From: an uncultured Clostridia bacterium
Lineage (GTDB): Bacteria; Bacillota; Clostridia; TANB77; CAG-465
Length of the DNA stretch: 51,114 bases
Assembly: GCA_944386635.1 (NCBI GenBank)
Contig: CALXBV010000067.1
Location: 1 to 51,114 of the forward strand
Direction of reading: 5' to 3'
The stretch's first letter is position 1; every line of letters starts with the position of its first letter. Of this stretch, positions 3,381 through 45,037 are shown in pieces. Position numbers and translations under genes: made by a program. The notes under the pieces were generated by a model, which worked only from the letters and a program-made list of their open reading frames with translations, was not told the origin of the DNA and ran no database searches.

Positions 3381-3625
3381 GCAATGAACAAGAGGAGTAG
3401 GATATAGGTTATCTGTAGAGAGAAAGACTCGTCGGCTGAAAGGTCTTTTAGAAAAACATATCTGAAGGTAGCTTGGGAGCTGGTATGCTGAAGTATTTTA
3501 TGTGTAAGTATACTCCGTTACAGTCGGTAAATCTGGAATTAAGTGCACATTTTTATGTGAATTAAGGTGGTACCGCGAATCACAGTCATTCGTCCTTAAG
3601 TTTAAGGATAAATGGCTGTTTTTTT
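3381..3625 (+). ncRNA. T-box riboswitch, Val (GTA) specifier
   Basis: AGTA, GGCTGAAAG and GAAG-GTA motifs; T-box AAGGTGGTACCGCG at ~3564-3577; terminator ACAGTCATT...AATGGCTGT plus T-run; TTGAAA-17-TATACT promoter at 3331-3359. Confidence 0.92.
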
Positions 3626-3651
3626 ATATATTGAAGAAAGGAGATAATTAT

Positions 3652-3849
3652 ATGCTTAGAGATTTTGGGATATTTGTAGCACTCGTCTGCTTATTAATTT
3701 CAGTAATAGTGGTACTAAATGCACGTTGGATAATACGTTGTATAGATAATAGTAAGGATTTAGAAAATAAAATGGTTGGAAAAATAAAGGTTGTCTCAAC
3801 ACTCGTGAGCATTGTATCTTTATATATATTAACTATTTTAATGAGATAG
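3652..3849 (+). CDS. Small two-helix membrane protein between the T-box and valS
   Basis: AAGGAG RBS before ATG 3652; 65 aa with two hydrophobic segments. Confidence 0.6.
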   Translation: MLRDFGIFVALVCLLISVIVVLNARWIIRCIDNSKDLENKMVGKIKVVSTLVSIVSLYILTILMR

Positions 3850-3864
3850 AAAAGGAGAGATATT

Positions 3865-6474
3865 ATGGATAATAATTTTAATTATCAAAAAAGAGAAGAA
3901 GAAATATATAAAAATTGGGAAGAAAAAGGATATTTTAAGTGTGAGATAAGAGAAGGAGAAAAGCCTTTCGTTATATCTATGCCACCACCAAATGTAACAG
4001 CAAAGCTTCATATAGGACATGCACTTGTTAATACAATTCAGGACGTATTTATTAGATATCATAGATTAAAAGGTGAACCTACTTTATGGATTCCTGGAAC
4101 AGATCATGCAAGTATTGCAACAGAAGTTAAAGTTGTTGAAAAACTTAAAAAGGAAGGTAAAACTAAGGCAGAACTTGGTAGAGAAGGATTCTTAAAAGAA
4201 GCTTGGGCTTGGAAGGAAAAATATGGTGGGGAAATTACAAGCCAAATCAGAAAACTTGGATGCTCTTGTGATTGGTCTAGAGAAAGATTTACTATGGATG
4301 AAGGATGTTCTGATGCAGTACTTGAAGTATTTGAAAGACTATATAATAAAGGTTTAATATATAAGGGAAAAAGAATTGTTAACTGGTGTCCTTCTTGTAA
4401 GACTCCAATTTCAGATACAGAAGTTGAGTATGAAGAAGTACCATCATATTTATGGTATATTAAGTATCCAATTGAAAATAGTGATGAATATTTAACAGTT
4501 GCTACAACAAGACCCGAGACAATGCTTGGAGATACAGCAGTAGCTGTTGCACCAGATGATGAAAGATATACAAAATATATAGGAAAAAGAGTATATCTAC
4601 CAATTGTTGGTAAATATATACCTGTTATTGCAGATAGATATGTTGAAAAAGAGTTTGGTACAGGTGTAGTTAAAATCACACCAGCTCATGATCCAAATGA
4701 TTATAAGGTTGGAGAAAGGCATAATCTTGAGATAATAAATATATTAAATGATGATGCTACATTAAATGAGAATGCAGGAAAGTATCAGGGAATGACAACA
4801 ATTGAAGCTAGAGAAAAAATAGTAGAAGACTTAAAGGAGCAAGGATATTTAGTAAAAATTGAACCTTATACTCATAATGTTGGAAGTTGCTATAGATGTC
4901 ATACAACAATTGAGCCATATATTTCAAATCAATGGTTTGTACATATGCCAGAACTTGTAAAGCCGGCAATAGAAGCTGTTAAAAATGGTGAGACAGTATT
5001 TGTACCAAAAAGATTTGAAAAAATGTATTTTAACTGGATGGAAAATATAGAAGATTGGTGTATATCTAGACAACTTTGGTGGGGACATAGAATACCAGCA
5101 TATTATTGTGATAGATGTGATAAAATTACTGTATCAAAAACTCCAGTTACTACATGCGAATGTGGTGGGCATCTAACTCAAGATGAAGATACTTTAGATA
5201 CATGGTTTTCATCTGCTTTATGGCCATTTTCTATACTTGGCTGGCCGAAGAAAACAAAAGATTTAGAATATTTCTATCCAAACTCAATGTTAGTTACTGG
5301 CTATGATATTATAACATTCTGGGTAAGTAAAATGATTTTTTCGGGAATTGAATACACAGGACAAGTACCATTCAAGTATGTATTTATTAATGGTCTTGTA
5401 AGAGATGCTAAGGGAAGAAAAATGTCTAAGTCATTAGGTAATGGTGTTGATCCGTTAGATGTAATTAGAGATTATGGAACTGATGCTCTAAGACTTTCTT
5501 TAATACAAAATATAACACCTGGAAATGATGTAAGATATATACCAGAAAAAGTTGAAGCTTCTAGAAACTTTGTAAATAAGTTATGGAATGCAGCAAAATT
5601 TGCAAATAATTATATTAAGGATCTAGATATAGACAAGCCAGAAATGTTAATGCCTGAGGACAAATGGATACTTACTAAACTATCTAATACAATAAGAGAT
5701 GTTGAGCAGAATATGGATAATTTTGAAATTGGTATAGCAGTCCAAATTATTTATGATTTTATTTGGAATGATATTTGTGATTGGTACATTGAAATGATAA
5801 AGCCAAGACTATATAATAAAGAAAATAAGTCATATAAAACAGCTATATGGACTCTAAATCATACTTTAATAGCTGCAGTTAAAATGCTACATCCATTTAT
5901 GCCTTTTGTGACAGAAGAAGTATATTTAAATTTAAAATCAGATAAGGAATCTATTATGCTAGCTTTATGGCCAAAAGCAGAATATAATTTTGAGCAGGAA
6001 GAAAAAGCTGTAGATACTATAAACAATATGATTAGGCAAATACGTAATGCTAGATCCAATATGAATATTACAGGCTCTAAAAAGACGTCTGCTCAAATAG
6101 TACTTGAAAAAGGTGAGTTTGAAAATATATTTAAAGAGGCAATAGAATATATCAAAAGACTTGCATATATAGATAACATTGAATATATAGATAAAACAGA
6201 AGATGCTAATACTAAGTATGTAGCATTACATGATGAAAAGATAAATGTATTTTTAAATATGTCTGATGCTATAGATTTGGATGCAGAAATTGAAAAATTA
6301 GAAAAAGAAAAACAAACAGCTACATCTGAATTAAAAAGAGCACAAGGAATGTTAAAAAATGAAAACTTTGTAAATAAAGCACCAGAAAAATTAATACAAG
6401 CAGAAAAAGAAAAAGTTCAAAAGTATACGGATTTGCTAGAAAAAATCGAATCAAGACTTAGCGAATTAAAATAG
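3865..6474 (+). CDS. valS: Valine--tRNA ligase
   Basis: PPPNVT, HIGH, WCISRQLWWGH and KMSKS motifs; C-terminal coiled coil; Val T-box upstream. Confidence 0.98.
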   Translation: MDNNFNYQKREEEIYKNWEEKGYFKCEIREGEKPFVISMPPPNVTAKLHIGHALVNTIQDVFIRYHRLKGEPTLWIPGTDHASIATEVKVVEKLKKEGKTKAELGREGFLKEAWAWKEKYGGEITSQIRKLGCSCDWSRERFTMDEGCSDAVLEVFERLYNKGLIYKGKRIVNWCPSCKTPISDTEVEYEEVPSYLWYIKYPIENSDEYLTVATTRPETMLGDTAVAVAPDDERYTKYIGKRVYLPIVGKYIPVIADRYVEKEFGTGVVKITPAHDPNDYKVGERHNLEIINILNDDATLNENAGKYQGMTTIEAREKIVEDLKEQGYLVKIEPYTHNVGSCYRCHTTIEPYISNQWFVHMPELVKPAIEAVKNGETVFVPKRFEKMYFNWMENIEDWCISRQLWWGHRIPAYYCDRCDKITVSKTPVTTCECGGHLTQDEDTLDTWFSSALWPFSILGWPKKTKDLEYFYPNSMLVTGYDIITFWVSKMIFSGIEYTGQVPFKYVFINGLVRDAKGRKMSKSLGNGVDPLDVIRDYGTDALRLSLIQNITPGNDVRYIPEKVEASRNFVNKLWNAAKFANNYIKDLDIDKPEMLMPEDKWILTKLSNTIRDVEQNMDNFEIGIAVQIIYDFIWNDICDWYIEMIKPRLYNKENKSYKTAIWTLNHTLIAAVKMLHPFMPFVTEEVYLNLKSDKESIMLALWPKAEYNFEQEEKAVDTINNMIRQIRNARSNMNITGSKKTSAQIVLEKGEFENIFKEAIEYIKRLAYIDNIEYIDKTEDANTKYVALHDEKINVFLNMSDAIDLDAEIEKLEKEKQTATSELKRAQGMLKNENFVNKAPEKLIQAEKEKVQKYTDLLEKIESRLSELK

Positions 6475-20226: not shown

Positions 20227-20355
20227 TTAATTACAGCAGAAACAGAAAAATAGTAATACTAAAAGTAGTATTAGTATAAAATTACCATTACAAAATAAGT
20301 TACTTATACAATTATTTGAGTTGTTGTTCTGCTCATTACAGCAACAATTATTCAT
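20227..20355 (-). CDS. Unannotated 42-aa Cys/Asn-rich protein with hydrophobic C-terminus (spore-protein-like)
   Basis: MNNCCCNEQNNNSNNCISNLFCNGNFILILLLVLLFFCFCCN; AAGGAG RBS within the end of the peroxiredoxin gene; starts 3 nt after its stop. Confidence 0.7.
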   Translation of the reverse strand: MNNCCCNEQNNNSNNCISNLFCNGNFILILLLVLLFFCFCCN

Positions 20356-20358
20356 ATA

Positions 20359-20892
20359 CTACCATCTCCTTAAATCATCATTTTCTTTGCTAAAGCAAAG
20401 GTACCAGTCCATACAATTTTTTGCATTATTTTTTTTCATATTATTCATTAAATCTATGTAATTATTAGGGGAAGGGATAATAGTAGATAATCCAGGCATC
20501 CAGTTTGCTGGTGTAGCAACATTATCTGAATCAGATATTTGAAGTGCATCTATCATTCTTAATATTTCTGATATATTTCTACCATTTTGAGCTGGATATA
20601 TAAGGATACACCTTACTGTCTGAGACGGGTCTATAAAAAATACATTTCTAACGGTTGATGTATTATTATTAATGTCTGACATCATTCCATACATATTAGC
20701 TATATCTTTATTTGTATCAGAAATTATTGGAAAAGGAATAGAAATACCAGTATTTTCTTCAATATCTTTTATCCAAGCTAAATGTGATGGACAACTATCT
20801 ACAGATAATCCTAATAAACTACAATTTCTTTTTTCAAACTCCTCATTATGCTTAGCAAAAGAGATTAACTCAGTTGTACATACGGGGGTAAA
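20359..20892 (-). CDS. Peroxiredoxin (Prx6/1-Cys type), 3' segment lacking its own start
   Basis: Open from 20892: FTPVCTTELISFAK...GLSVDS..SHLAW...FPIISD...TVRNVFFIDP...YP..NGRN..EILR...TPANW. Confidence 0.93.
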   Translation of the reverse strand, partial: FTPVCTTELISFAKHNEEFEKRNCSLLGLSVDSCPSHLAWIKDIEENTGISIPFPIISDTNKDIANMYGMMSDINNNTSTVRNVFFIDPSQTVRCILIYPAQNGRNISEILRMIDALQISDSDNVATPANWMPGLSTIIPSPNNYIDLMNNMKKNNAKNCMDWYLCFSKENDDLRRW

Positions 20893-20919
20893 TGTTAAGG
20901 ATATAATAGATAAAAGCTA

Positions 20920-21054
20920 TTATTCTTTTTTTATATATTTCAAATATATATCTTTACAAAAAATTGAAAATTGAGTATATACTATATATTTTTTTTGAGT
21001 TGATACATTTTTTGAATGTATTTTTTTTATTATATAATTTTTATTATTAGACAA
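20920..21054 (-). CDS. Unannotated 44-aa basic protein; candidate recombination directionality factor
   Basis: TTG start after AGGTG (21065-21061); MSNNKNYIIKKIHSKNVSTQKKYIVYTQFSIFCKDIYLKYIKKE; CATATATT -10-like box at 21078-21071; function is inference. Confidence 0.5.
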   Translation of the reverse strand: MSNNKNYIIKKIHSKNVSTQKKYIVYTQFSIFCKDIYLKYIKKE

Positions 21055-21194
21055 TATTTTCACCTAATTTAATATATGTCTTTATACTACAATAATTGAC
21101 ATTAATAATTTGTATTTTTTTATTTATAGATATCTAAAAGTTTATTATAATGTATATATTATAATAAAAGTTTTATAATTTGAAAGGAGTATAT

Positions 21195-22706
21195 ATGGTA
21201 GCAATATATGCAAGACAAAGTATAGATAAAAAAGATAGTATTAGTATACAGACACAATTAGAATATGGTAAAAATATTTGTAAAACAGAAGGTTTAATGT
21301 ATAAAGAGTATTATGATAAAGGATTTTCTGGATCTAACTTAAATAGGCCAAAGTTTAAAGAGTTAATATTTGATATAGAAAATGGAATAATTAATAAAGT
21401 TATATGTTATAGATTAGATAGAATAAGTAGAAGTTTAGTTGATTTTTCTAATTTATTAGTTTTTTTTGAAAAGTATAACGTTGAATTTATATCTGCTACA
21501 GAACAATTTGATACATCAACTCCTATTGGAAGAGCTATGATTAATATAATAATGGTTTTTGCTCAATTAGAAAGAGAAACTATACAGCAACGTGTAAGAG
21601 ATAACTATTATGCCAGAGCTAAAAAAGGCTTATTTACCGGAGGAAATATTGCATTTGGATATAAAAATGAAACTATAAAGATGGATGGGAAAAAAAGTCC
21701 AGTGTTCAAGCAAGAAAATGAAGAAATTAAAATAGTAAAATATATATTCAAAGAATATTTGAAAAATAGGACTATACATTCAATAGCTAAAGACTTAACT
21801 AATTTATATAGCAAGTTGTATACGGATAAATTTGTAAAAAGAGTATTAACAAATACAATATATGTAAAGTGCGATACAAAAATATATACATATTATAAAG
21901 AAAAAGGATATATTATGTATAATGATTTAAATGATTTTAACGGAAAATGCGGAGCTGTAATATATGGTAAAGAAAAAGGAAAGAAGAATAGAATAAGAAC
22001 AGAAATTGATGAACAATTATTCGTATTAGTAAAGAATATACCTGTAATTGAATCTAAGAATTTTATAATTGTGCAGGAAAAGATTAATAGTAACAAGAAA
22101 GAAATTACTGCAAAAAAGCGAGGAAAATATAGCTGGCTTACAGGGTTAGTCAAATGTAAGTTATGTAACTCATCAGTTGGAGTAAAAGTTACAAGAGGAT
22201 ACAAATATATGATTTGTTCTAAGCATAGGCTGTATAATGCTTGTGATAATAAAAGAAATTATAAACTTGAAGAGATAGAAGATATTATTTATAAAGAAGT
22301 TGTAGATTATATAAAAGATATAGATGTGAATAATTTAATACAAGACGATGAAAAAAATGCATATAAAAGTAAGGAAAATGAATTATTAATAAAGAAAACA
22401 CAATATCAAGAAAAATTAAATAATCTTATAAGCATTGCATCTAATAATAAAGAAATAGAAGATATACTAAAAGAAAATATTATTAAATTGGGTGAAAGTA
22501 TACAAAAAATAGAAGAAAATATAGAAAATATAAAAATGGATGCTTTAAATAGAGAAATTGATGTTGATATGTATATAAAAGCAATAGATATTATTACTAA
22601 TAGGTTTTCAGAGTTAGATTTGTATGAAAAAAATAGATTAGTAAAGATTTTTGTGAAATGTATATACTTAAATGAAAAAGAAATAGAGATACTTTTTTAT
22701 ATATGA
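21195..22706 (+). CDS. Large serine recombinase (SpoIVCA/CisA-like)
   Basis: AAAGGAG RBS; YARQS catalytic Ser, DKGFSG, RLDRISR, FAQLERE, Zn ribbon CKLC...C...C and coiled coil. Confidence 0.95.
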   Translation: MVAIYARQSIDKKDSISIQTQLEYGKNICKTEGLMYKEYYDKGFSGSNLNRPKFKELIFDIENGIINKVICYRLDRISRSLVDFSNLLVFFEKYNVEFISATEQFDTSTPIGRAMINIIMVFAQLERETIQQRVRDNYYARAKKGLFTGGNIAFGYKNETIKMDGKKSPVFKQENEEIKIVKYIFKEYLKNRTIHSIAKDLTNLYSKLYTDKFVKRVLTNTIYVKCDTKIYTYYKEKGYIMYNDLNDFNGKCGAVIYGKEKGKKNRIRTEIDEQLFVLVKNIPVIESKNFIIVQEKINSNKKEITAKKRGKYSWLTGLVKCKLCNSSVGVKVTRGYKYMICSKHRLYNACDNKRNYKLEEIEDIIYKEVVDYIKDIDVNNLIQDDEKNAYKSKENELLIKKTQYQEKLNNLISIASNNKEIEDILKENIIKLGESIQKIEENIENIKMDALNREIDVDMYIKAIDIITNRFSELDLYEKNRLVKIFVKCIYLNEKEIEILFYI

Positions 22707-22728
22707 TATATCTATCTATATTGGCAGT

Positions 22729-22869
22729 GGTAAAATCACCTGGATGAGAGAAAAATACTAACCATTTTCCCATATAATCTGTAAGTTTTAAAGGTCCAAA
22801 CGTTGAATTCGCTATAAATCTAGGAGCTCTTTGACCTAACATAATCATATTATTTCTTTGTTCTTCCAT
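22729..22869 (-). CDS. Peroxiredoxin 5' segment (codons 1-47)
   Basis: AAGGAGG RBS; MLGQRAPRFIANSTFGPLKLTDYMGKWLVFFSHPGDFT, then runs into element sequence. Confidence 0.93.
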
Positions 22870-22888
22870 TTTTACTCCTCCTTGCTAT

Positions 22889-22915
22889 ATGGTATGAAAA
22901 ATGTGATTATTTGTG
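22889..22915 (-). promoter_or_regulatory. Putative sigmaK-type promoter of the split peroxiredoxin operon
   Basis: CACA (22915-22912), 15 nt, CATACCAT (22896-22889), i.e. AC-N16-CATAnnnT. Confidence 0.6.
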
Positions 22916-40548: not shown

Positions 40549-41289
40549 TTAATTAGCTATAAATATATTAGGATTAAGTCCGCTATTGGAGTTTTTGGAT
40601 TTTCTAACCTCAAAATGTAAGTGATGACCATCAGTATCCATTATTCCAGCTCTTTTGTTAGGATTTCCACCTTCTTGAGCAATTACTTGATTTTGATATA
40701 CATAGTCCCCATTTGATACATGTATGATGGAAAGATTGGCATAGTATGTATATAATGTTATTCCATTTATTTTGTGTTCGATCATTATTTCATTACCGTA
40801 TTTTTCACTGTGTCCAACATAACAAACATAACCATTTGCGGCAGCATATATATTACCTTGATAAGTCTCACATGCAATATCAATGCCTTGATGTGTAAGG
40901 TCATATTGACAAGTTATAAGACCATCTGCTGGCATTACCATGGTGTTTCTACAATTTTTATAATAGTCATATCCACTAATATATACTAAAGAGTCAAATA
41001 ATCCAATATTAGATGAGTTAGAAGAATATGATTGAGCATAAAAATCTCTTTTTTGGTTAAGTTTTGTTTGTAGAAATGTTATAGGGTTAAAAAAATATAA
41101 TATAATTAAAGTTAATATAATTGCTAATACTTTTTTATTTAATATGTGTCTTTTAGTTTTAGATATAAATCTAGATAGTGATATACTATGCTTTTTAGTT
41201 TTAAATTTTTCTTTATTTTTTTCTTCATTTGAATTTTTATCTGGATTTATTTCTGGCTCTACTCCTATATAAGTTATATCATTTTCCAT
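40549..41289 (-). CDS. M23 family metallopeptidase, membrane-anchored
   Basis: HQGID, AAANG, YGN, HLHFEVR. Confidence 0.85.
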   Translation of the reverse strand: MENDITYIGVEPEINPDKNSNEEKNKEKFKTKKHSISLSRFISKTKRHILNKKVLAIILTLIILYFFNPITFLQTKLNQKRDFYAQSYSSNSSNIGLFDSLVYISGYDYYKNCRNTMVMPADGLITCQYDLTHQGIDIACETYQGNIYAAANGYVCYVGHSEKYGNEIMIEHKINGITLYTYYANLSIIHVSNGDYVYQNQVIAQEGGNPNKRAGIMDTDGHHLHFEVRKSKNSNSGLNPNIFIAN

Positions 41290-41930
41290 TAATCAACAAT
41301 TGTTATTCCTAAAAGCTTGATGAATGTTAGACTTTGCTCACTTGTTAGAATAACACCTTTTAAATCTTCAATATATGTTATAATACCAGAAATATCACAA
41401 CTCCTTAAATCCAAACCATTCATAGAAGTATGAGAAAAATTAGACTGTGCAAGATCACATTTATTAAATTCTATGTTTTTAAATGTTATATTAGATAATT
41501 GCGCTTCTTTCATATTACAATCTATGAATTCTGCACTAATAAAATTACTATCATTTAATATAACACCTAACATGTATGAATTTTTAAAACTTACATTATC
41601 AAAATATGTACCTGTAAGGACAGTTCCAGTAAACTTACAATTTATAAATACTACTCTTTTGAAAGTTGACTTTTCTAAATTTACTAATGAAAAATCACAA
41701 TTTTCAAATATCACATCATTAAAGTATGCTTTGGGTAGATTGGAGTTTGCAAAAGAAACGTTTTTTACCTTCGAATAGGATATTATTAATTCATCTAAAG
41801 AAAAATCTTTTAGTACATCATCTTGTATGTTACACTCTTTTATAGTATCGTTAAATTCTAAGAACTCTTCCATACCATATAATGTATCTAAAGAATCTGG
41901 AACTTTAGGTTGAGAAATCATTAAAATCAC
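41289..41930 (-). CDS. Pentapeptide-repeat protein
   Basis: Five-residue periodicity (FENCD FSLVN LEKST FKRVV FINCK). Confidence 0.88.
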   Translation of the reverse strand: MILMISQPKVPDSLDTLYGMEEFLEFNDTIKECNIQDDVLKDFSLDELIISYSKVKNVSFANSNLPKAYFNDVIFENCDFSLVNLEKSTFKRVVFINCKFTGTVLTGTYFDNVSFKNSYMLGVILNDSNFISAEFIDCNMKEAQLSNITFKNIEFNKCDLAQSNFSHTSMNGLDLRSCDISGIITYIEDLKGVILTSEQSLTFIKLLGITIVD

Positions 41931-44347: not shown

Positions 44348-45037
44348 ATGTTTTTTTCTTTTATATTAGAATTAATATCTAAATTTTTTGGATTATTTGG
44401 ATATATATCTAATGATAAACTTTATCCAGAGCCTTTAAGTAAGACGGAAGAAGAATATTATTTAAGAAGATATTTTAATGGAGATAAAGAGGCAAGAGAT
44501 AAGCTAATAGAACATAACTTAAGACTAGTAGTACATATAGCTAAAAAATATACTAACAATGAGCAAGAATTAGAAGACTTTACTTCAATAGGAACAATAG
44601 GATTAATAAAAGCCATAGATAGTTTTAAAGATAATAAAGGATTTAAAATAAGTACATATGCATCAAGATGCATAGAAAATGAGATATTAATGTATATTAG
44701 AACTTCTAAAAAACAAAAAGCAGAGATATCAATGAATCAAGTTATAGGCACAGATAAAGATGGAAATGATATGGAGCTTATAGATACATTGGTTTTAAAA
44801 GAAAAAGATGCAGTTGACGATATACATGATAAGACTGTATTAAAGCAAGTTTTAGATTTTATAGAAAAAAAACTTAATAAACGAGAAAAATATATTATGA
44901 ATAAAAGATATGGATTAGATGGCGGGAATTGTATGACTCAACAAGAATTAGCAGATGAACTTGGTATATCACGTTCATATGTATCACGAATTGAGACTAA
45001 AGTGCAAAGACTTTTAAAAAAGAATATAAAGAAGTAA
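44348..45037 (+). CDS. sigK: Sporulation sigma factor pro-sigmaK, uninterrupted
   Basis: Hydrophobic pro-sequence ending GYIS, LIEHNLRLVVHIAKKY, IGTIGLIKAI, CIENEILM, IGTDKDGN, ISRSYVSRIE; sigmaE-like CATAAATA at 44321. Confidence 0.9.
   Translation: MFFSFILELISKFFGLFGYISNDKLYPEPLSKTEEEYYLRRYFNGDKEARDKLIEHNLRLVVHIAKKYTNNEQELEDFTSIGTIGLIKAIDSFKDNKGFKISTYASRCIENEILMYIRTSKKQKAEISMNQVIGTDKDGNDMELIDTLVLKEKDAVDDIHDKTVLKQVLDFIEKKLNKREKYIMNKRYGLDGGNCMTQQELADELGISRSYVSRIETKVQRLLKKNIKK

Follow-up and report, generated by a model that had tools for sequence, protein, structure and literature searches.

An uncultured Clostridia bacterium carries a 1-Cys peroxiredoxin gene (prx) that is split by a short element with a large serine recombinase gene and one small open reading frame (ORF), and the locus raises the question of whether so small an ORF encodes the directionality factor (RDF) with which the recombinase would excise the element. 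A sequence-only reading of the 51,114-nucleotide stretch of DNA analysed here (hereafter the window; 26.7% GC) had put the ORF forward as such a candidate. Our answer is tentative: comparison with related elements suggests that the small ORF is a real, strongly diverged gene, most likely the RDF of the neighbouring large serine recombinase, and we put the probability of this reading at about 0.45.

The element measures 1,842 bp from core to core, and the same 6-bp core is present at both junctions. The parts of the split gene and the two cores, the latter read from the sequence, are as follows.

20359..20892, minus strand: 3' part of the 1-Cys peroxiredoxin gene, running from FT-PVCTTE... to the stop; Pfam AhpC-TSA positions 36-122 plus 1-cysPrx_C
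20887..20892: core TTTACC at the junction of the element with the prx 3' part
22729..22734: core TTTACC at the junction of the prx 5' part with the element
22729..22869, minus strand: 5' part of the 1-Cys peroxiredoxin gene, 47 codons ending ...FSHPGDFT; Pfam AhpC-TSA profile positions 2-38

The interruption falls at the FTPVC codons and leaves both halves of prx open. Across the insert the AhpC-TSA profile resumes at position 36 after position 38, and joining the flanking sequences indicates that precise excision of the 1,842-bp element would restore one frame, GDFT-PVCTTE. The element itself consists of an intact large serine recombinase gene and a 287-bp spacer of 12.9% GC that holds the small ORF. 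The dyad symmetry of the reconstructed attP is weak (13/25). The spacer as an RNA element was considered and rejected, since no Rfam family was found in it and its folding was no better than that of shuffled sequences (z -0.09). A Cys-rich small ORF lies directly 3' of prx both in the window (20227-20355, minus strand, 42 aa) and in the related locus L001 described below (6110-6256, plus strand, 48 aa); it is N/C-rich with a hydrophobic tail, and may share a transcript with prx.

The recombinase and its candidate promoter occupy the plus strand.

21123..21151, plus strand: sigma-70-like promoter candidate of the recombinase gene, TTTATA-17-TATAAT, 10/12, a consensus match only
21195..22706, plus strand: large serine recombinase, 503 aa from the ATG; also open from TTG 21180, giving 508 aa

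By its domains, serine and coiled coil, the recombinase is a large serine integrase. The Pfam domains Resolvase, Recombinase and Zn_ribbon_recom all score above cut-off, the protein belongs to PHROG 95 (integrase), and the catalytic R12-Q13-S14 is invariant in the recombinase alignment. Its AlphaFold2 model contains a coiled-coil hairpin at residues 392-456 (helices 392-422 and 424-456), and the best PDB matches of the model are SPbeta-type, Bxb1 and phiC31 integrase complexes. The stop codon lies 22 nt from the adjacent core. Coding composition is normal (23.5% GC), and comparison with the integrase of L001 gives a pN/pS of 0.45 (pS 0.62, pN 0.28). Since the composition of the integrase is normal and both prx halves are open, a working excision system seems to have been maintained. 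In a collection of 15 billion predicted proteins an identical recombinase was found on four contigs; the closest metagenomic relatives of the integrase (P0003, P0006-P0009) are 59-49% identical to it, and the best match among sequenced phages reaches only 36.7% identity, with no annotated phage context.

The small ORF and its putative expression signals lie on the opposite strand.

20920..21054, minus strand: candidate small gene, TTG 21054..21052 to TAA 20922..20920, 44 codons plus stop
21060..21065, minus strand: Shine-Dalgarno sequence AGGTGA, 5 nt before the TTG
21070..21078, minus strand: -10-like box CATATATTA of sigmaE/sigmaK type, 15 nt before the start, with no matching -35

The minus-strand ORF, its AGGTG and the box, as reported in the sequence-only reading, were all recovered in place, the CATATATT box at 21078..21071. 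The same holds for the claims that the ORF is divergent from the recombinase gene (TTG 21180 / ATG 21195..22706, plus strand), from whose ATG it is separated by 140 nt, and that it ends beside the att arm, its stop lying 27 nt from the att core TTTACC (20892..20887). That it is the only other ORF in the element proved true in a loose sense, as other ORFs of at least 30 aa exist, all of them inside or overlapping the recombinase gene. The frame is also open from GTG 21063, which yields the 47-aa form given by the ORF listing. Among 5,000 shuffled 287-nt spacers 5.2% contained an ORF of at least 44 aa, with mononucleotide and first-order Markov shuffling alike, and the length of the ORF alone is marginal with respect to chance. 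The box alone is not above chance either: CATANNNTA occurs 86 times in the window, with 91.7 occurrences expected.

Both the 44-aa and the 47-aa peptides are absent as predicted proteins from the 15-billion collection, and the small peptide belongs to no Pfam or PHROGs family. AlphaFold2, run with five aligned sequences, predicts a helix over residues 3-42 (pLDDT 78). Hydrophobic-moment analysis of this helix was uninformative. Known RDFs, as described in PMC12286644, bind the junction between DBD2 and the coiled coil; a single long helix, as modelled here, would be compatible with such binding and proves nothing.

The homology of the small ORF was explored with a profile of the 13 closest recombinases, which was scanned over genome contigs; 80 loci were kept. 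When the peptide was searched against these loci by tblastn, a single outlier appeared, L001, at 33.5 bits, a score that none of 200 shuffled peptides reached (maximum 27.3) and that exceeded the 24.6 bits of the reversed peptide. The homologous ORF of L001 (796..665) encodes 43 aa, with AGGTGA 6 nt before an ATG-TCT start, and pairwise BLASTP of the two peptides gives 14/35 identities and 24/35 positives (E 3e-9). Both ORFs have the AGGTGA hexamer and TCT as second codon (TTG-TCT in the window, ATG-TCT in L001), both peptides end in the motif FC-x2-(I/M)Y-x-KYI-x-K, and L001 carries CATATATAT at an equivalent distance from its Shine-Dalgarno sequence. The match supports the TTG start over the longer GTG form. 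Because the small ORF is homologous to the 43-aa ORF of L001, it stands above chance; it is not a random frame, and its diverged counterpart is a small gene of the closest integrase-bearing prophage.

The relationship is narrow. The sequence-only reading had named conservation beside homologous recombinases as a check, and the searches found it at L001 and not in the flanks of L002 and L034 or in the other 77 loci. An HMM of five peptides, run against 19,296 frames of at least 20 aa from the 80 loci and the window, matched only L001 and the window, and HMM and tblastn searches detected no homologue of the ORF in the 4 kb seen on each side of L002 and L034. The second-best tblastn match, just upstream of the L002 integrase, was discarded, since it runs antisense within a 281-aa gene and its score is of the order reached by shuffled peptides. 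The L001-type ORF has been called as a protein in other public contigs (clusters P0125-P0127, only three matches). One of these clusters is on an 11,362-bp contig, which is also the length of the contig bearing an L001-like integrase fragment, and the two are presumably the same contig. Against 1.84 billion representatives, the 47-aa form matched just two proteins, both long (560 and 801 aa) and in our judgement spurious, and none of 86 candidates for longer, fused forms of the peptide was found at E <= 1. The L001 peptide had no tblastn match in 50,697 phage records, the ESM Atlas held no usable match for the peptide, and a PDB sequence search with the five-peptide profile returned two chance matches (E > 0.8). 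Searches of Pfam, PHROGs, PDB and the Atlas gave no lead to the function of the L001 gene. In all, there is only one independent homologous lineage of the small ORF.

L001 is a prophage in an uncultured Clostridium MAG, and its integrase is the closest genomic relative of the window integrase (55% identity), the two forming sisters with an SH-aLRT of 100. The L001 prophage occupies the target site of the window element: its integrase ends ~50 bp from the prx codons VFTPVCSTE. Upstream of this integrase lies a lysogeny module with a PHROG 8036 protein, a CI/LexA-like repressor, a divergent Cro-like HTH and small early genes. The 43-aa ORF is part of the early operon on the Cro side, 3.2 kb from the integrase gene and divergent from it as in the window, and the operon also holds a 50-aa membrane-like peptide and an AbrB/antitoxin-like gene. 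The window element is without these early-gene neighbours. The two elements are alike in their target codons, the homologous small ORF and the divergent layout of ORF and integrase; they differ in that L001 has a full lysogeny module, a distant ORF encoding an acidic peptide, and the opposite orientation relative to prx (window 20887-22734, L001 3989-5570). In the window the integrase 3' end accordingly abuts prx-N, to which it is antisense, and in L001 it abuts prx-C in the sense direction. L001 also has a perfect 10-bp inverted repeat, TACACCTAGA ... TCTAGGTGTA, with a 23-nt loop (5520-5562); it lies after the stop codon of the integrase gene and before the prx junction, and could be a terminator or part of an att arm.

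The same prx site is used by L002 and L034, whose integrases are 38-40% identical to that of the window. In L002, prx-N is found just past the integrase 3' end, as in the window, with the junction ~10 bp upstream of the window's; in L034, prx-C lies ~55 bp before the integrase 5' end, and the element runs on into HTH and primase-like genes. The FTPVC site of 1-Cys prx is occupied in four elements (window; L001 at ~5560; L002 at 5588-5770; L034 at 3390-3938) with integrases that are 38-55% identical, and all four integrases fall in one 9-member clade (SH-aLRT 96). One of the elements is minimal, two are prophage-like, and one is satellite-like with a primase-like gene. Clostridial serine integrases of one clade have repeatedly used the FTPVC codons of 1-Cys prx as their attachment site, a finding that stands on sequence alone. 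A limited literature search turned up no account of an element inserted in peroxiredoxin genes. In four further members of the clade (L045, L049, L067 and L072) a minus-strand gene at ~5540-6210 adjoins or overlaps the 3' end of the integrase gene; by eye it is polysaccharide deacetylase-like, and it may be a second recurrent target gene; for L065, of the same clade, no deacetylase-like gene is listed beside the integrase.

Could the small ORF be expressed in the mother cell? The sequence-only reading had assigned it a mother-cell-type promoter, a claim that was not borne out: only the -10-like box is present, with neither ATA nor AC at a distance of 13-19 nt upstream, and the window shows no enrichment of the motif. 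In L001, too, ATA and AC are absent 13-19 nt upstream of the box. The sigmaE and sigmaK promoters, as described in PMC3789822, have a common -10 and differ at the -35, where sigmaE promoters have ATA and sigmaK promoters AC. No sigma-70-like site was found before the small ORF, nor a complete promoter for it. Within the window the box lies within 35 nt of the start in 4 of 51 ORFs, namely prx, the small ORF, a SafA-like gene and hsp18. For prx itself the match is more extensive.

22888..22914, minus strand: sigmaK-like promoter candidate of prx, AC-N16-CATACCATA, -10 ending 18 nt before the ATG; a consensus match only

The SafA-like gene is preceded by AC-N17-CATAGTATA, upstream of 27842 (plus strand), so that sigmaK-like matches of the form AC-N16/17-CATAnnnTA, with the consensus spacing from B. 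subtilis, precede both prx and a SafA/LysM spore-coat-like gene. The host is an endospore former, as its SigK match exceeds the subfamily cut-off and SpoIIQ-like and SafA/LysM proteins are also encoded in the window.

44348..45037, plus strand: sigK, intact

This sigK is free of a skin-type interruption. Elsewhere in the window, a pentapeptide-repeat protein (41289-41930, minus strand) gave weak, sub-cut-off matches to Qnr-type and HalA models. CotE of C. difficile is reported to be a sigmaK-dependent coat protein with a peroxiredoxin domain (PMC3789822). The small ORF is in the same direction as prx, and a simple scan of that strand revealed no terminator-like site inside the element or anywhere from the prx promoter candidate (22888-22914) to the ORF; read-through from the prx promoter is therefore possible and may offer an alternative timing for the factor.

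Three other explanations of the small ORF have to be weighed against an RDF, and the least probable, which we regard as highly improbable, is a chance open frame in an AT-rich spacer that carries only the integrase promoter and an att arm. The 5.2% of shuffled spacers with an ORF of this length, the unenriched CATANNNTA and the spacer's want of an RNA family or unusual fold would all suit a chance frame, but the specific in-frame similarity to L001, beyond all 200 composition-matched shuffles, and the Shine-Dalgarno sequence and start shared with the L001 ORF already disfavour it. A more serious competitor, possible if rather doubtful, is a decaying relic: the ORF would be the last recognisable piece of a phage early gene, in neutral drift and without a functional protein, and the element would be fixed, or excised without an RDF, or served by an RDF in trans from another prophage. 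Much in the sequence of the window copy is of the kind expected from decay. Over the 41 codons compared with L001, pN (0.34) exceeds pS (0.15), and no purifying selection is visible, while the same method gives a pS of 0.60 and a pN of 0.29 for prx-C. The differences are distributed 18/7/13 over the codon positions, and many are directional changes of GAA to AAA (E to K), with the charge of the peptide reversed from a pI of 4.6 in L001 to 9.8 in the window. The GC content of the ORF is 11.9%, below the minimum of 14.1% observed among 1,476 coding windows of 135 nt that were drawn from 25 confident genes, and its GC1 is 15.6% vs 39.8% in genes, a composition typical of the most AT-rich intergenic DNA. 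The ATG of L001 has become a weak TTG, and the collection with the identical recombinase has no predicted protein for the ORF. In simulations of neutral drift from the L001 ORF, with substitutions only and no indels, the frame stayed intact in 1.6-15% of runs, and frames this long arise in 5% of shuffles. A recombinase may also manage alone, as the discussion in PMC5025042 allows that CD1231 may occasionally excise skin without CD1234. Against decay stand the two deletion boundaries that hug the ORF, the preservation of the frame, the Shine-Dalgarno sequence, the start position and the region of the stop, and the protein alignment, in which every gap is a whole number of codons. In the same drift model, likewise without indels, frame and Shine-Dalgarno core were kept together in only 0.4-8% of runs, and an intact integrase of normal composition is hard to explain in an integrated, non-replicating element that cannot excise. 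The charge reversal has a possible counterpart in the integrase: its coiled-coil region (residues 380-470) has 13 K+R and 20 D+E in the window and 15 and 14 in L001, and the pairing of a more acidic coiled coil with a basic peptide, where the L001 peptide is acidic, may be a compensatory change or a coincidence.

Unlikely, in our view, is a functional small protein other than an RDF, such as an early-operon regulator or a host-takeover peptide, kept for example to control integrase expression or for an effect on the host. The setting of the L001 ORF would agree with such a protein, as it lies 3.2 kb from the integrase gene, and its neighbours in the early operon include the membrane-like peptide of 50 aa and the AbrB/antitoxin-like gene; so would the absence of a detectable family and of a homologue within 4 kb on each side of L002 and L034. 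Phage serine-integrase RDFs are commonly encoded far from the integrase gene in early regions, as are phiC31 gp3, Bxb1 gp47 and A118 gp44, and the position in the L001 early region is for this reason no argument against an RDF. What speaks against another function is that, among all early genes, only the small ORF was retained with the integrase.

This retention is the main argument for an RDF. Apart from the integrase gene, the small ORF is the sole coding candidate kept in an element reduced to the utmost, and because it is tightly co-retained with the integrase in so minimal an element, it may be something that the integrase needs. Whether the window ORF encodes a working protein is close to an even call, and if it does, an RDF is by far the most economical role. 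The proposal of a candidate directionality factor is partly supported: it is carried by the non-random sequence, the L001 homologue and the status of the ORF as sole non-integrase candidate kept; the promoter, the non-coding-like composition and the lack of visible purifying selection tell against it.

Anatomy, homology and co-retention with the integrase are the observations from which a model of the element can be drawn; binding, control of directionality and timing by the peptide are the parts that we infer. A prophage would have integrated at the FTPVC codons of 1-Cys prx and then lost nearly everything, leaving as a remnant the integrase, two att half-sites, a short divergent control region and the 44-codon gene. 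The integrase would be made from its own sigma-70-like promoter and, alone, would be unable to recombine attL with attR. The 44-aa helical peptide would bind the zinc-ribbon/coiled-coil region of the integrase, as known RDFs do, and so permit attL x attR recombination, upon which excision of a 1.84-kb circle would rejoin prx in frame (GDFT-PVCTTE). The terminal mother cell would be the likeliest setting of excision, because the host is a spore former and prx has a sigmaK-like promoter.

A more elaborate version of this model, which we consider a long shot, is that of a minimal switch that times itself, which would be the smallest integrase-RDF cassette to occur naturally in a spore former. Mother-cell transcription from the prx promoter would read through, antisense to the integrase gene, and make the RDF message; excision would follow, after which prx, now repaired, would be transcribed from that promoter. 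By lying in the opposite orientation to L001, the element would have brought the RDF under the control of its target gene, and the swing of the peptide from acidic to basic would reflect co-evolution with the acidic coiled coil.

If the peptide is an RDF, the 1.84-kb element would be a naturally minimised recombination unit consisting of two att sites, one integrase and a 44-aa factor, and peroxiredoxin would join the mother-cell genes that are controlled by DNA excision. The element would then also exemplify the reduction of a prophage to a developmental switch, and would provide an orthogonal integrase/RDF pair of compact size.

Intervening elements of other spore formers provide the closest points of comparison. 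The skin and SPbeta elements of B. subtilis span 48 kb and 134 kb, compared with 1.84 kb here, and the spore-former elements considered here for comparison are all much larger than the present one. SprB and SprA of SPbeta are reportedly encoded side by side, rdf beside int, in a recombination unit interrupting a sporulation gene. The same arrangement is described for Skr/SpoIVCA of B. subtilis skin, an attL-rdf-int-attR unit in a defective or active prophage that interrupts a sporulation gene (PMC6957869). There, however, skr lies on the strand of spoIVCA and overlaps its 5' end, whereas the small ORF of the window is divergent from its integrase gene (PMC6957869). Experimentally demonstrated RDFs of sporulation-linked serine recombinases can be small and resemble no protein family. 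That an RDF may be tiny, as the sequence-only reading supposed, agrees with the documented sizes of GirX (42 aa; PMC5595907), Skr (64 aa; PMC6957869) and CD1234 (72 aa; PMC5025042), and a 53-aa factor is predicted for the C. botulinum yin element (PMC10747680).

GirX is the nearest in size. It is reported to be an RDF needed for excision and not for integration in vitro, and GirX/GirC belong to the gin element in gerE of Bacillus cereus ATCC 10987, where the very small protein is described as being without a conserved motif and sometimes unannotated (PMC5595907). Like the element studied here, gin combines a very small coding sequence with a large serine recombinase gene, and it splits a mother-cell gene; unlike that element, it is 28.6 kb long, carries other genes and has gerE as its target, and the likeness to GirX is one of size and context (PMC5595907). 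The CD1234/CD1231 pair from skin of Clostridioides difficile offers a clostridial parallel, a large serine recombinase with a small RDF that, by the account in PMC5025042, is without database relatives. CD1234 is reported to have a mapped sigmaE promoter and a SpoIIID box, and to restrict skin excision to the mother cell; its transcription start lies 14 bp before the start codon, a short leader comparable to the box-to-start distance here (PMC5025042). The differences are that CD1234 has 72 aa and a pI of 5.5, whereas the peptide studied here has a pI of 9.8 and its ORF a -10-like box only, and that the C. difficile skin targets sigK and contains 19 genes, whereas the target here is prx (PMC5025042).

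Comparable reduction is described outside the spore formers, in heterocyst-forming cyanobacteria, where elements down to 1.3 kb, with little beyond a recombinase, interrupt functional genes and are excised in cells that differentiate terminally (PMC4874684). These elements belong to another phylum and another developmental programme, and no small accessory ORF figures in the description given of them there (PMC4874684). Taken together with these systems, the element of the window can be seen as an extension of the known theme of intervening elements with an integrase and an RDF, and what sets it apart is its extreme reduction and its new target gene.
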